Origin: Rhizobium sp. Q54
GTDB taxonomy: Bacteria > Pseudomonadota > Alphaproteobacteria > Rhizobiales > Xanthobacteraceae
NCBI GenBank assembly: GCA_945861895.1
Contig: CAMAWF010000003.1
Location: forward strand, 32,798 to 96,797
Length of the DNA stretch: 64,000 nt
Direction: 5' to 3'
Shown here one piece after another: positions 14,002 to 45,808 of the stretch (the stretch's first letter is position 1; each line of letters starts with the position of its first letter). The notes beneath the pieces are model-generated. The model saw only the letters and a program-made list of their open reading frames with translations. It was not told the DNA's origin and searched no databases. Position numbers and translations under genes: made by a program.

Positions 14002-14042
14002 GAACAAGTATCGAACATATAGTGTCCGTTCATGATTTGTTT
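14002..14042 (+). promoter_or_regulatory. Alpha-type LexA operators upstream of lexA (autoregulation)
   Basis: Perfect GAAC-AAGTATC-GAAC at 14002-14016 and near-consensus GTTC-ATGATTT-GTTT at 14028-14042, flanking a TATAGT -10-like hexamer at 14018-14023. Confidence 0.85.
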
Positions 14043-14093
14043 CGGACCAGTTCTTGCTCTTCCTTGCGAACGTCCTTTGGGGAGGACCCCGCG

Positions 14094-14798
14094 ATGCTGA
14101 CCCGCAAACAGTTCGAGCTTCTGCGTTTCATCCACGAGCGCCTCACCGAGCAGGGGGTGCCGCCCTCGTTCGATGAGATGAAGGACGCTCTGGACCTGCG
14201 TTCCAAATCCGGCATCCACCGGCTGATCACCGCGCTGGAGGAACGCGGCTTCATCCGCCGCCTGCCCAACCGAGCCCGCGCCATCGAGGTGATCAAGCTG
14301 CCCGACTCTGTGGCGCACGGCATCGGCGGCGGACGCTCGCGCAAATTCACCCCGAGCGTGATCGAAGGCGATCTCGGCCGCGTGCGCGCCACCTCCGAAG
14401 ACGACAACAGCGGACGCCCGATCGCGGTGCCGGTGATGGGACGCATCGCCGCCGGCACGCCGATCGAAGCGATCCAGACCCGCAGCCACGTCATCAACAT
14501 GCCGGCGGACCTGCTCACGGCCGGCGAGCACTTCGCGCTCGAAGTGCGCGGCGATTCCATGATCGAAGCCGGCATTCTGGACGGCGATATGGCGCTCATC
14601 CGCCGCACGGAATCCGCCGACACCGGCGATATTGTCGTCGCACTGATCGACGACGAGGAAGCAACCCTCAAGCGCTTCCGCCGCCGCGGTGCCTCGATCG
14701 CGCTGGAGCCGGCGAACACCTCCTACGAGGTGCGCATCCTGCCGCCCAATCGCGTGCGCATCCAGGGCAAGCTGGTCGTGCTGTTCCGGCGCTACTAA
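14094..14798 (+). CDS. lexA: SOS repressor LexA
   Basis: [10 protein letters not shown] winged-HTH, IAAG cleavage site, GDSM Ser and TLKR Lys dyad. Start ATG 14094. Confidence 0.99.
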
Positions 14799-41306: not shown

Positions 41307-44300
41307 TTAAACCGCCTGCACCTCGACCACGCCCGGCACCGCCTTGATGGCGCCGGCAATCTGCGGGGAGACCTTGAAACGGCCGGGCAGCTTTACCTCC
41401 GCTTCGCCGCCATCCGCCAGTTGCAGGACGAAGGTGACTTCGCCCTCGCCGCGCGGCTCCAGCCGCTTGCGGATGCTCTCAAGCGGCGCGTCGCTCTTGA
41501 GATGGATGCGCAGATTGGCCTGCATCTTTTCCGCCGCCTGATCGAGCGGCTCGACCGACTGGATGCGCGCGCGCACCTCCTCGCCCTGCACTTCGGCGGA
41601 CAGAAACAGCAGCACCGCCGCACCCGGTTCCAGCATGTCGCGGTACTCGGCCAGCCCTTCGGAGAAAATCACCGCCTCATAATGGCCGGTCGGGTCGGAT
41701 AGCCCGATGATGCCCATCTTGTTGCCGGTCTTGGTGCGCCGCTCGGTGCGCGCGATCACGGTGCCGGCAACGCGGCCGGCGGTGGCGCCGGCCTTCACCG
41801 CGCCGGAGAACTCGGCCCAGGACTGCACCCGCAGCCGCTTAAGAGTAGCAGCGTAATCGTCGAGCGGATGGCCGGTGAGGAAAAATCCGATGGCGTCGTA
41901 TTCGTGCTTGAGCCGCGCGGCGGCAAGCCATGGCTCGATCGAAGCAAGCGGCAGCGGCTCGCGCACCGCGCCGCCGCCGAACAACTCGCTCTGTCCCATG
42001 GCGGCAGTGTCGTGCGCGCGTTGCGCGCGGCCGAGCATGACATCGACGGCGCCGAATACGCGCGCTCGGTTCGGCTCAAATTCATCGAATGCCCCGGCCG
42101 CGGCGAGACTCTCCAAGACCCGTTTGTTGACGGCGCGCGGATTGATGCGGGTGGCGAAATCGGCCAAATCGACGAATTTTTTTTCGGCGCGCGCGGCTAC
42201 GATCGACTCCACCGCCTGCGCCCCGACGCCTTTGAGCGCGGCGAGCGCATACAGGATGGTGCTGCCATCGACCTCGAAGGCCGCGCCCGAGCGGTTGACC
42301 GAGGGCGGATCGAGACGAATGCCGAGGCGTTCAACTTCGGCGCGGAACTCCGCCAGCTTGTCGGTATTGCCCATGTCGAGCGTCATGGTCGCCGCGAGGA
42401 ACTCAACCGGGTAGTTCGCCTTCATATAGGCGGTCTGATAGGCGACGAGCGCGTAGGCGGCGGCATGACTTTTGTTGAAGCCATATTCGGCGAAGCGTTC
42501 CAACAAATCGAAAATCGCATCGGCTTGCGCACGCTCAATGCCACGCTCGATCGCGCCGTTGACGAACTCTTTGCGCTGCGCCTGCATCTCCTTGCGGATT
42601 TTCTTGCCCATGGCGCGGCGCAGCAGGTCGGCCTGGCCGAGCGTGAAGCCCGCCAATATCTGCGCGGCCTGCATCACCTGTTCCTGATAGACGATGACGC
42701 CGAATGTCTCGCGCAGGATCGGTTCCAGCTTGGGATGGATGTAGTCCGGCGGCTCCATGCCGTGCTTGCGTGCGCAATAGGTCGGGATATTGGCCATCGG
42801 ACCCGGCCGGTAGAGCGCGACGAGAGCGATGATGTCCTCGAAGCGGTCCGGGCGCATGTCGAGCAGCGCGCGCCGCATGCCCTGACTTTCCAGTTGGAAG
42901 ATGCCGACCGCTTCTGCGCGCGCCAGCAAGTCGTAAGTCGACTTGTCGTCGAGCGGTATCTCGGCGAGATCGAGTTCGATCCCGCGCCGGCGCAACAGAA
43001 CTACCGCCCGCTCCAGCACCGTGAGCGTCTTGAGGCCGAGGAAATCGAACTTCACCAGGCCCGCCTGCTCGACCCATTTCATGTTGAACTGGGTCACCGG
43101 CATGTCGGATTTGGGATCGCGGTAGAGCGGTACCAGCTCGATCAGCGGCCGGTCGCCGATCACGATGCCGGCGGCGTGGGTGGAAGCGTGGCGGGTGAGA
43201 CCTTCCAATTTTTTGGCGATGTCGAAGGCGCGCTTGACCACCGGATCGCGGTCGCGCTCGGCCTGCAAGCGCGGCTCGTCGTCGATCGCGCGCGTCAGCG
43301 TCACCGGATTGGTGGGGTTCTGCGGCACCATCTTGCACAGCTTGTCGACCTGGCCGTAGGGCATTTGCAGCACGCGGCCGACATCGCGCAGCACGCCGCG
43401 CGCCTGCAACGTGCCGAAGGTGATGATCTGCGCCACCTGATCGCGCCCGTAGCGCTCCTGCACATAGCGGATGACCTCGTCGCGCCGCTCCTGGCAGAAG
43501 TCGATGTCGAAATCCGGCATCGACACGCGTTCGGGATTGAGAAAACGTTCGAACAAAAGCCCGAAGCGCATCGGGTCGAGATCGGTGATGGTGAGCGCAT
43601 AGGAGACGAGCGAGCCGGCGCCGGAGCCGCGGCCGGGACCGACCGGAATGCCTTGCGCCTTCGCCCACTGGATGAAGTCGGCGACGATGAGAAAATAACC
43701 GGGATATTTCATGCCTTCGATCACGCCGAGTTCGAAGGCAAGCCGCTCCTGATAGTCCTGCGGCGTCAGGCCAGGTGCCGTGCCGTGCGCGGCGAGCCGG
43801 CGCTCGAGTCCGGCGTTCGCGCGCGTGCGCAGTTCCGCCCCTTCATCGACCGCAGCCTTGCCCTCGCCGACGGAAAAACGCGGCAGAATGGGTTCATGTG
43901 TGAGCGGCCGGAACGTGCAGCGCGTCGCGATTTCCACCGTCGAGGCCAGCGCCTCCGGCAGATCGGCGAATAACGTGGCCATCTCGGCGCGCGACTTGAA
44001 ACGGTGCTCGGGGGTCAACTGGCGGCGATCAGATTCCGCCAACAGGCGTCCTTCGGCAATGCAGATGAGCGCGTCGTGGGCTTCGTAGTCCTCGCGCTGC
44101 GCAAAAAACGGCTCGTTGCTGGCGACCAGCGGGATGCCGTTGCCATAGGCGAGATCGAGCAGCACCGGCTCGACCGCGCGCCGCGCGCCGCCGCCGTGGC
44201 GTTGCAACTCGATATAAAGCCGGTCCCCGAACAGCCGCAGCAGCGTCGCACACCGCGCGGTGGCGAGATGGCTTTGCCCGGCCAGCACCGCCATGTCGAG

Positions 44301-44747
44301 CGGGCCGCCCGGTCCGCCGGTGAGCGCGATGATGCCTTCGGTTTCACCCGTCAGCCAATCGAGTTTGAGATGCGGCGGTTCGTTGGACGGAGTTTCCAGG
44401 AAGGCGCGCGAGTTGAGCCGCATCAGACTGCGATAGCCGGCCTCGCGCGCGGCAAGCAGCACAACGCGCGGATAGACGATGCTGGTTGCACGCTGATCCT
44501 GGTCGGCGAAATCGACCGCAAGCGCGCAGCCGACGATCGGCTGAATGCCGGAGGACGCCATCTTGTCGGAGAATTCCAGCGCACCGAACATGTTGTCGGT
44601 GTCGGTGAGCGCCAGCGCGGGCTGTCCGTCGGCTTTGGCAAGTTCCGCGAGCCGCGCAATGGTCAGCGCGCCTTCGAGCAGCGAATAGGACGAATGCACA
44701 TGCAGGTGAACGAAGTTCAGCGGCACGATAGCGGGATCGGCGGCCAC
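41307..44747 (-). CDS. dnaE: DNA polymerase III subunit alpha
   Basis: HLHVHSSYS PHP domain, GPGRGSGAGS, PDFDIDF, KFDFLGL and YGFNKSHA motifs. GTG 44747 follows a GAGG RBS. No intein visible. Confidence 0.99.
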   Translation of the reverse strand: MAADPAIVPLNFVHLHVHSSYSLLEGALTIARLAELAKADGQPALALTDTDNMFGALEFSDKMASSGIQPIVGCALAVDFADQDQRATSIVYPRVVLLAAREAGYRSLMRLNSRAFLETPSNEPPHLKLDWLTGETEGIIALTGGPGGPLDMAVLAGQSHLATARCATLLRLFGDRLYIELQRHGGGARRAVEPVLLDLAYGNGIPLVASNEPFFAQREDYEAHDALICIAEGRLLAESDRRQLTPEHRFKSRAEMATLFADLPEALASTVEIATRCTFRPLTHEPILPRFSVGEGKAAVDEGAELRTRANAGLERRLAAHGTAPGLTPQDYQERLAFELGVIEGMKYPGYFLIVADFIQWAKAQGIPVGPGRGSGAGSLVSYALTITDLDPMRFGLLFERFLNPERVSMPDFDIDFCQERRDEVIRYVQERYGRDQVAQIITFGTLQARGVLRDVGRVLQMPYGQVDKLCKMVPQNPTNPVTLTRAIDDEPRLQAERDRDPVVKRAFDIAKKLEGLTRHASTHAAGIVIGDRPLIELVPLYRDPKSDMPVTQFNMKWVEQAGLVKFDFLGLKTLTVLERAVVLLRRRGIELDLAEIPLDDKSTYDLLARAEAVGIFQLESQGMRRALLDMRPDRFEDIIALVALYRPGPMANIPTYCARKHGMEPPDYIHPKLEPILRETFGVIVYQEQVMQAAQILAGFTLGQADLLRRAMGKKIRKEMQAQRKEFVNGAIERGIERAQADAIFDLLERFAEYGFNKSHAAAYALVAYQTAYMKANYPVEFLAATMTLDMGNTDKLAEFRAEVERLGIRLDPPSVNRSGAAFEVDGSTILYALAALKGVGAQAVESIVAARAEKKFVDLADFATRINPRAVNKRVLESLAAAGAFDEFEPNRARVFGAVDVMLGRAQRAHDTAAMGQSELFGGGAVREPLPLASIEPWLAAARLKHEYDAIGFFLTGHPLDDYAATLKRLRVQSWAEFSGAVKAGATAGRVAGTVIARTERRTKTGNKMGIIGLSDPTGHYEAVIFSEGLAEYRDMLEPGAAVLLFLSAEVQGEEVRARIQSVEPLDQAAEKMQANLRIHLKSDAPLESIRKRLEPRGEGEVTFVLQLADGGEAEVKLPGRFKVSPQIAGAIKAVPGVVEVQAV

Positions 44748-44903
44748 AAGGTCCTCGCGAATCTGGATGCCGCGATGGTGCGGATCGCCCCGCCCGCTGT
44801 CCACCACCATCGGCCCGGGCGGGCCGGCTATGCCGGTTTTCCCCAGCCCGGGCCGTTGGCAGCGTGACGCGATTACAAGGGCGGCGGACGCTGACGCGGG
44901 CGG

Positions 44904-45002
44904 TCAAATGGCACTGATAACCTGCGCCCAGATCGCGATCATTCCGACAAACAACGCAAGCGACGTGAGAGCGGCAGCTTCTTGAACGACGGCGCGGATC
45001 AT
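44904..45002 (-). CDS. 32-aa single-TM small protein, SidA-like SOS cell-division inhibitor candidate (not in the ORF track)
   Basis: MIRAVVQEAAALTSLALFVGMIAIWAQVISAI*. AGGGAG RBS, LexA-covered promoter, and position directly upstream of dnaE. Confidence 0.8.
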   Translation of the reverse strand: MIRAVVQEAAALTSLALFVGMIAIWAQVISAI

Positions 45003-45018
45003 GAGAATCTCCCTTCAG

Positions 45019-45059
45019 GAACGAAGAGAGAACATAGTTCCCGTTACGTTCCAAGTCAA
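45019..45059 (-). promoter_or_regulatory. LexA-repressed sigma70 promoter with two perfect alpha-type SOS boxes
   Basis: On the + strand, GAAC-GAAGAGA-GAAC (45019-45033) and GTTC-CCGTTAC-GTTC (45037-45051). On the minus strand, TTGACT (45059-45054)-N17-TATGTT (45036-45031). Confidence 0.92.
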
Positions 45060-45100
45060 GTTTTTTGCAAAATTCCATTTTCCGCAACTATCTCAATCAC

Positions 45101-45808
45101 TTAATCCAATTCCACCACCAGCCCCTCGCGCAAGGTGACACGGCGGTCCATGCGGGCGGCGATGTCCATGTTGTGGGTTGCGACAATGGTGGCGAGACCC
45201 GACGCGCGCACCAATTGCGCCAGCGTCGAGAACACATGGTCCGCGGTGTGTGGATCGAGATTTCCGGTCGGCTCGTCGGCAAGCAGAATGCGCGGCGCAT
45301 TGGCGACCGCGCGCGCGATGGCGACGCGCTGCTGCTCGCCGCCGGAGAGTTCCGCCGGCCGGTGCATGAGCCGTTCGCGCAAACCGAGATAGCCCAACAG
45401 CTCGGCTGCGCGCTTGCGCGCCTCGGCACGGGTGAGGCCGTGGATCATCTGCGGCATCATCACATTTTCAAGCGCGGAAAATTCCGGCAGCAGATGATGC
45501 GCCTGATAGACAAAACCGATCTGGTTGCGCCGCGTCGCGGTGAGTTCCGCGTCCGGCAGGTTGGCGGTCGCCTTGCCGTCGATATAGACATCGCCGCTGT
45601 CGGGATGCTCCAGAAGTCCAGCCAGATGCAGCAGCGTCGATTTGCCGGCACCCGAGGGCGCCACCAGCGCCACCGATTGCCCGGCCCACACCGCAAGCTC
45701 CGCGCCCTTGAGGATGTAAAGCGTGGCGTCGCCCTGCTTGTAATGCCGCTCGACCGCATGCAGGAAAATGACGGGAATTTCCTCAGTCGCAGCGCGTGCG
45801 TCACTCAT
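45101..45808 (-). CDS. lolD: Lipoprotein-releasing ABC transporter ATPase LolD
   Basis: [22 protein letters not shown] and [10 protein letters not shown] motifs; downstream of lolC/E. Confidence 0.94.

Follow-up and report, generated by a model that had tools for sequence, protein, structure and literature searches.

SidA, a 29-residue inner-membrane protein that acts on FtsW, is the main SOS-induced division inhibitor of Caulobacter (PMC4211646; PMC9578287). Here we analyze a 64,000-nucleotide stretch of DNA from Rhizobium sp. Q54 (contig CAMAWF010000003.1, positions 32,798 to 96,797; "the window" hereafter means this whole stretch), and focus on a 32-codon open reading frame (ORF) on its minus strand, which encodes a predicted single-helix membrane peptide and lies immediately upstream of dnaE, behind a promoter that carries two predicted LexA boxes. 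Our best reading, drawn by analogy of position and control, is that this module would be the counterpart of Caulobacter SidA in a host that, as the initial annotation of the sequence had supposed, is of the Hyphomicrobiales type (Xanthobacteraceae, Pseudolabrys-like).

Published Caulobacter supplementary tables list sidA as CC_1927 / CCNA_02004 and the adjacent dnaE as CC1926 / CCNA_02003, bearing out the earlier statement that sidA sits directly upstream of dnaE, and assign both genes to a single transcription unit of 3557 bp. Two LexA boxes are listed for the sidA promoter, GTTCACAAGATGTTC 49 bp and TTTCTTGTTTTGTTC 15 bp from the annotated coding sequence (CDS), and this promoter gives the highest LexA chromatin immunoprecipitation peak among early genes. 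The reported log2 fold changes are 2.6-3.4 for sidA; for dnaE they are 1.2 with mitomycin C and 1.45 in a strain mutated in both lexA and sidA (about 2.3-2.7-fold), with no induction of the upstream gene CCNA_02005. LexA binding, induction, co-induction of dnaE and the FtsW target are thus results from Caulobacter only. The window module resembles this arrangement in encoding a tiny single-helix membrane peptide (the helix here being predicted), in having a promoter with two GTTC-N7-GTTC boxes (at which LexA binding is here predicted) and in having dnaE as its co-oriented neighbor directly downstream. It differs in the length of the peptide (32 residues vs. 29), in the operator, whose boxes stand head-to-head and 3 nt apart over the core promoter whereas the Caulobacter boxes are listed 34 nt apart, and in the host, which belongs to Hyphomicrobiales instead of Caulobacterales.

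Several other described systems share part of this design. The Escherichia coli peptides TisB and DinQ are hydrophobic, have a single helix of about 27-29 residues and are made from LexA-repressed promoters. The TisB/IstR-1 and DinQ/AgrB systems thus resemble the window module in the kind of peptide and in the LexA-box promoter (LexA control of the window promoter being predicted), but their LexA box type differs and the partner gene in the window is dnaE. DidA, a 71-residue membrane protein of Caulobacter (PMC4211646), is likewise a small division inhibitor, acting on FtsW/FtsI/FtsN, and would be alike in function if the analogy holds; it is nevertheless activated by DriD, SOS-independent, not LexA-regulated, larger and encoded at another locus. 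YneA, SosA, ChiZ and DivS of Gram-positive bacteria and SulA of gamma-proteobacteria are SOS-induced division inhibitors to which the same functional analogy would extend, and YneA also targets FtsW (PMC13396833). The Gram-positive proteins are larger and have extracellular or LysM domains, SulA is a cytoplasmic FtsZ binder, and all are unrelated to the window peptide in sequence and context. Small membrane inhibitors of division that are SOS-induced and coupled to dnaE are a kind of system already known, while the peptide family of the window is itself unannotated and uncharacterized. In the literature we searched, neither this peptide family nor any SOS-induced division inhibitor or SidA counterpart is described for Hyphomicrobiales, in agreement with the initial annotation, which knew of no characterized example there.

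The small ORF is a conserved gene that annotation has missed or mis-called

The exact 32-residue peptide has already been called, without a name, in NCBI and ENA assemblies, and Pfam and NCBIfam hold no model for it. To collect relatives we ran a word-index search with a mis-called relative of 45 residues (P0002) as query, which returned 391 proteins, all of them unnamed or labelled 'hypothetical protein' and none with a Pfam domain. The relatives have in common the core M-[FVIL]-[RK]-A-V-V-[EQ]-E-A-A-A-L-[AT]-S-[LI]-x-L-F-[VIL]-G-M-I-A-[IV]-W-A-Q-V. A scan with the core alignment over one genome per GTDB species matched at least 599 stretches, and at least 520 species genomes among the matches listed carry the peptide as confirmed by tblastn; the best 80 matches come from Pseudolabrys, Pseudorhodoplanes, Variibacter, Undibacter, Afipia, Bradyrhizobium and metagenome-assembled genomes (MAGs) of Xanthobacteraceae. 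A further search, by profile against 1.84 billion cluster representatives, found 560 clusters (50% identity) at E<=1e-3, the best 150 matches all being strong members of the peptide family. The module is thus present, unannotated, in hundreds of soil and root-nodule bacteria.

Conservation statistics were calculated on 81 distinct species-level loci, one genome per GTDB species. The ORF is exactly 32 codons long in 81/81 loci, starting with ATG in 80 and GTG in one, and ending at the same position with TGA (47), TAG (21) or TAA (13). Mean column entropy at codon positions 1/2/3 is 0.70/0.17/1.17 bits, and the ratio of nonsynonymous to synonymous differences (pN/pS) is 0.29, an uncorrected value with pS near saturation. 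Invariant residues are written with several synonymous codons: A9, L12, S14, F18 and G20 use 2-5 each (A9 4, L12 5, S14 4). This combination of third-position variation, fixed length and synonymous codon use indicates a translated and selected peptide and not a conserved stretch of regulatory DNA. We conclude from these patterns of variation that the small ORF is a real gene under purifying selection.

The peptide has a hydrophobic core from A9 to I32, with R3 and E8 near the N-terminus, and strongly conserved polar or small residues at E8, S14, G20, W25 and Q27. AlphaFold2 with the family alignment predicts one unbroken helix over residues 2-31, with a predicted local distance difference test score (pLDDT) of 97.5. 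Conservation of the reading frame and of the hydrophobic helix in relatives, on which the earlier proposal depended, is thus found in the purifying selection across the 81 loci and in the predicted helix.

In existing annotation, the start of the peptide has often been set at an ATG or TTG that lies within the promoter, producing 'proteins' of 44-79 residues (P0002-P0121; loci L003-L082 around 2440-2500), whose conserved N-termini (MNYVP..F.., LT.EQ..) are translations of TTGAC..GAAC..AACTATGTTC..GTTC, that is, of the promoter and operators. These operator-translating extensions are a systematic annotation artefact, which also splits the family into hundreds of 50%-identity clusters. The annotated Caulobacter sidA CDS, at 123 bp, is 33 bp longer than the 29-residue form, an over-extension of the same kind.

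Two inverted LexA boxes are built into the promoter

The minus-strand read of 44500-45400, cTTGACTtgGAACgtaacggGAACTATGTTCtctcttcGTTCctgaAGGGAGattctcATG, carries the promoter, both boxes, the ribosome-binding site and the small ORF, and we find base-exact agreement with the arrangement first proposed: TTGACT-N17-TATGTT with one box in the spacer and a second, inverted box over the -10, then AGGGAG and the 32-codon ORF. The features of the locus are collected in Table 1.

Table 1. Features of the small-ORF and dnaE region, in window coordinates
Feature	Position	Strand	Evidence and remarks
-35 hexamer TTGACT of P1, the predicted SOS promoter	45054..45059	-	Direct read and promoter scan; TTGAC in 78/81 related loci
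LexA box 1, GAACGTAACGGGAAC (coding strand), GAAC-N7-GAAC	45037..45051	-	Fills the -35/-10 spacer
-10 hexamer TATGTT	45031..45036	-	3-nt inter-box gap plus first 3 nt of box 2
LexA box 2, GTTCTCTCTTCGTTC, GTTC-N7-GTTC	45019..45033	-	Inverted relative to box 1; perfect in 81/81 loci
Shine-Dalgarno AGGGAG	45009..45014	-	6 nt 5' of the ATG; GGAG-type motif before the start in most related loci listed
32-codon ORF and stop, MIRAVVQEAAALTSLALFVGMIAIWAQVISAI	44904..45002	-	ATG at 45002; single-helix membrane peptide, SidA-like candidate
GC-rich hairpin GGCCCGGGC...GCCCGGGCC	44813..44853	-	No U-tract; loop with DnaA-box-like TGGGGAAAA (44845-44837)
Promoter-like element P2, TGGACA-N17-CACCAT	44775..44803	-	No LexA box; in 64/74 loci at a fixed distance to the DnaE HLHVHS motif (shuffle mean 1)
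dnaE (DNA polymerase III alpha)	41307..44747	-	Pfam PHP, DNA_pol3_alpha, finger, HHH_6; start probably GTG 44747

The two hexamers of P1 are separated by 17 nt, and transcription would start near 45024, a position that lies under box 2 together with the -10. Box 1 is perfect in 78/81 loci, with a single mismatch in the other 3, and the 3-nt spacing between the boxes is likewise kept in 78/81. Among the 78 loci with both boxes perfect and N3 spacing, the gap reads TAT in 55, AAT in 17 and ATT in 4; the -10 hexamer is thus built from the gap together with the first three bases of box 2. The start of box 1 lies 49 nt from the ATG. The 32-codon ORF appears in the mechanical ORF list, and a longer N-terminus is excluded by the TGA that stands in frame five codons further upstream, at 45017-45015.

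P1 is the sole sigma-70-like site on both strands of 44600-45300, compared with 0.1 expected from shuffles, in a promoter scan that used the consensus only and may miss weak or non-sigma-70 promoters. A 'terminator' called inside P1 was rejected, since it is only the palindrome that box 1 and the inverted box 2 form together. The 64-kb window contains GTTC-N7-GTTC 5 times vs. 1.7 times expected, and 2/5 occurrences are those at P1. The conservation of the boxes and of TTGAC across the 81 loci shows that the P1 architecture is more than chance.

Another of these occurrences belongs to the window's own lexA gene, which lies on the plus strand at about 14022-14798 and encodes LexA_DNA_bind and Peptidase_S24 domains. 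Directly upstream, between the -35-like TTGCGG and the -10-like TATAGT, stands a perfect GAACAAGTATCGAAC box at 14002-14016, a placement that indicates autoregulation, as far as can be read from the sequence. This operator has the same position and orientation in its promoter spacer as box 1 has in P1, and serves as an internal positive control for both the box type and its spacer placement. The remaining two matches fall inside the coding regions of DoxX and LpxI and are probably due to chance. In the window, about 31 kb separates lexA from the SidA-like gene, and lexA and sidA of Caulobacter are about 25 locus tags apart (CCNA_01979, CCNA_02004).

The peptide gene is linked to dnaE, which has a probable promoter of its own

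The minus-strand gene order is proS, lolC/E, lolD, small ORF, dnaE, rpsB, tsf, pyrH. Downstream of the peptide, dnaE is present on the same strand in 79/80 related loci (the other locus is too short for this to be judged), while lolD lies within 2.5 kb upstream of the peptide in only 60/80, identifying dnaE as the constant partner. The only clear break of tight linkage is in a Variibacter MAG (L006), where the peptide at 2501-2599 and a dnaE match from about 4545 are separated by about 1.9 kb.

A terminator scan of the locus found no intrinsic terminator between the small ORF and dnaE, which makes read-through into dnaE plausible. The intergenic hairpin is strongly folded: the 126-nt minus-strand stretch that contains it (44790-44915) has a minimum free energy of -73.5 kcal/mol (z -3.3). 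The motif TGGGGA[AT]AA, which resembles a DnaA box, occurs in 23/74 related spacers against a shuffle mean of 0.09, and the spacer of Mycoplana (L093, about 2691) carries a similar DnaA-box-like GGGGATAA; from its sequence, this motif may reflect control of dnaE by DnaA or the cell cycle. We also considered whether TGGGGAAAA..GGCATAGC is a sigma-54 motif and, on inspection by hand, rejected this because the GG/GC spacing does not fit.

P2 is probably the housekeeping promoter of dnaE, judging from its sequence and placement, and a P2-like TGGACT-N17-CTTATC also precedes dnaE in Mycoplana. Its position bears on where dnaE begins. The longest-ORF ATG of dnaE at 44810, which the ENA contig likewise gives as the start, lies upstream of P2 and 93 nt from the peptide stop, whereas the GTG at 44747 is preceded by GAGGA and matches the MAAD.. 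starts of relatives in a spacer alignment. Since P2 lies downstream of the ATG, the true start is probably GTG 44747, and DnaE is then likely about 21 residues shorter than called. The initial annotation had placed the small ORF 156 bp upstream of dnaE, a distance that holds for the GTG start but not for the longest-ORF ATG. It had also suggested that the SOS promoter may boost dnaE by read-through: this is borne out in Caulobacter, where the genes form one unit and dnaE is co-induced, whereas in the window read-through is plausible but, because dnaE has in P2 a probable box-free promoter of its own, the SOS promoter would be an add-on and not the main dnaE promoter.

Diverged relatives stand upstream of dnaE in other lineages

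Using an artificial consensus of the alphaproteobacterial DnaE N-terminus as query, we inspected the contigs of eleven matches, and identified short hydrophobic ORFs behind GAAC-N7-GAAC at the same position, namely MTAFVKDITALIVVTTFIASIGVMSEAVRLVL in Bauldia litoralis (Kaistiaceae), which follows the box GAACAAAACAAGAAC; MLPFVEDAAELASLAAFVALIALLARAVGAS in a Methylovirgula MAG (Beijerinckiaceae), with one-mismatch boxes; and MTEFMRDLAAFASITMFVASLSVLALGM in Mycoplana dimorpha (Rhizobiaceae), with tandem boxes. Two further lineages have such an ORF behind such a box, again upstream of dnaE. The diverged peptides are 28-32 residues long, and the distance from box to ATG is 48-49 nt in Bauldia, L085 and L087, compared with 49 nt from box 1 in the window. 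The operators are not built alike in all lineages. Only one box, in the spacer, is present in Bauldia and L085; in the Mycoplana type and in L086 there are tandem boxes of the same orientation that share or abut a GAAC; and in the Xanthobacteraceae type two boxes stand head-to-head with 3 nt between them. In the metagenome assemblies L085-L092, gene calling breaks dnaE up into several short genes, a pattern that frameshift errors could explain, and the small ORF of L086 is seemingly frameshifted near its 3' end.

Profile-profile comparison links these types in a chain. The window family matches the Methylovirgula type at E 2e-5, with 45% identity over 31 columns, followed by Methylovirgula-Mycoplana (E 5e-5), Mycoplana-Bauldia (E 1e-6) and Bauldia-fifth type (E 2e-5), and each score exceeds 60/60 column-permuted controls that keep composition. 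Taken with the shared position and the shared operator, this chain argues for one diverging superfamily and not for repeated invention. Five sequence types were seen here: Xanthobacteraceae/Nitrobacteraceae, Beijerinckiaceae, Kaistiaceae, Rhizobiaceae and one further lineage.

Comparison with the published Caulobacter boxes adds two observations. If the published distance is counted from where a box begins, the proximal Caulobacter box lies 48 nt ahead of the true ATG, and the Bauldia box is identical in 14/15 positions to GAACAAAACAAGAAA, the reverse complement of Caulobacter sidA box 2. Both likenesses are suggestive only, as they depend on the distance and orientation convention of the published list. 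Two metagenome scans for the published sidA boxes, with box orientation and spacing assumed, gave no match, and none of the loci collected here is matched by sidA_R, a cloning primer from the 3' flank of the sidA fragment.

Proposed mechanism and alternative explanations

The account that we favor, and hold to be reasonably probable, is that a LexA-locked promoter, once derepressed, yields a readily translated SidA-like peptide acting on the late divisome, together with read-through to dnaE. In the undamaged cell, two LexA dimers would sit on the 33-bp head-to-head double operator, masking everything between the promoter spacer and about +8 and closing a near-consensus sigma-70 promoter. Upon DNA damage, RecA-stimulated cleavage of LexA would free P1, and the peptide could be translated at once, since its leader is short (about 22 nt) and carries a strong Shine-Dalgarno sequence. 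If it behaves like SidA, the peptide would insert in the inner membrane and hold the late divisome (FtsW/FtsI) until repair ends, and a transcript that meets no terminator would run on into dnaE, adding to the constitutive output of P2. The sequence elements, the coding status of the ORF, its conservation and its synteny are direct observations on the loci studied here; for the window organism we infer repression, induction, read-through and division arrest.

Several points weigh against this account. The peptide sequence does not in itself tell a divisome binder from a pore-former, and kinship to SidA is drawn by analogy from context and not from compared sequence. The inverted 3-nt layout of the boxes is unlike the tandem or single boxes of other lineages, and probably unlike that of Caulobacter. 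Five other alphaproteobacterial dnaE loci (L088-L092, positions 1500-2000) have no LexA box or small hydrophobic ORF upstream of dnaE, among them a Roseiarcus MAG (L090) and one locus with a DnaE N-terminus like that of a named Mesorhizobium match, such that a module of the sidA-dnaE type is not universal in Alphaproteobacteria. Finally, the window sequence matches only DNA metagenomes (lake water, groundwater and soil), and the RNA-labelled runs that match a Bradyrhizobium locus consist of short, ambiguous contigs that also span DNA upstream of the promoter and are possibly DNA-contaminated.

The main rival explanation, to which we give a modest chance at best, is that the peptide is an SOS-induced membrane-damaging toxin of the TisB/DinQ kind, which would depolarize the inner membrane and bring on dormancy or persistence instead of acting on the divisome. 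A length of about 30 residues, one hydrophobic helix and a LexA-box promoter would all fit such a toxin. Systems like TisB/IstR-1 and DinQ/AgrB nevertheless include an antisense or divergent RNA, for which the consensus scan detected no promoter-like site on either strand of 44600-45300, and the short leader (about 22 nt by inference), with its strong and exposed AGGGAG 6 nt before the ATG, differs from the long, structured and processed 5' untranslated region of tisB. The dnaE linkage is moreover conserved across four families, as it is for sidA, and the strong conservation of E8, S14, G20, W25 and Q27, being polar or small residues, suggests a specific partner.

The linkage to dnaE could also be taken to mean that the ORF is a leader peptide or upstream ORF whose translation, and not its product, tunes dnaE after damage; its constant place directly upstream of dnaE in the same orientation, the stable hairpin between the two and the co-induction of dnaE in Caulobacter would agree with this. 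We regard it as unlikely, given that the amino-acid sequence is under purifying selection at a fixed length, that the ORF stop is 93-156 nt from dnaE with a conserved independent P2 in between, that the hairpin lacks a U-tract and stands clear of the ORF stop, and that it is the product itself that acts in Caulobacter. Hardly credible, lastly, is the explanation that there is no gene at all and that the conservation is that of the LexA operator and dnaE regulatory DNA, with the ORF incidental. Some of what has been called protein, namely the longer MNYVP..F.. and LT.EQ.. forms, does translate promoter and operator DNA, but within the 32 codons entropy falls to 0.17 bits at position 2 vs. 1.17 at position 3, invariant residues are written with up to 5 synonymous codons, three different stop codons occupy one position, and a GGAG-type motif precedes the ATG in most loci listed.

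Discussion

On the wider scale, we lean slightly toward the view that the sidA-dnaE SOS module is ancestral to much of Alphaproteobacteria instead of being peculiar to Caulobacter, and that its diverging superfamily of 28-32-residue peptides is a general DNA-damage division checkpoint, physically coupled to a polymerase boost and active in polar-growing Hyphomicrobiales, with the Xanthobacteraceae double operator having evolved for tighter control. If this is true, the checkpoint would operate in polar-growing Hyphomicrobiales such as Bradyrhizobium. The order, which also includes other rhizobia, Brucella and Agrobacterium, is characterized by polar growth and asymmetric division, and cultured carriers of the peptide exist in Bradyrhizobium, Afipia and Mycoplana.

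For annotation, the finding means that a small-protein gene of more than 500 species genomes has been missed, or mis-called with an N-terminal extension derived from its own operator, and the head-to-head double operator, which is particular to the Xanthobacteraceae-type branch, is a further point of interest. Together, these results suggest that the pairing of a division brake with extra replicative polymerase is of long standing in Alphaproteobacteria, and provide, in this peptide family, a concrete candidate for a DNA-damage checkpoint in a large order of agricultural and medical relevance.

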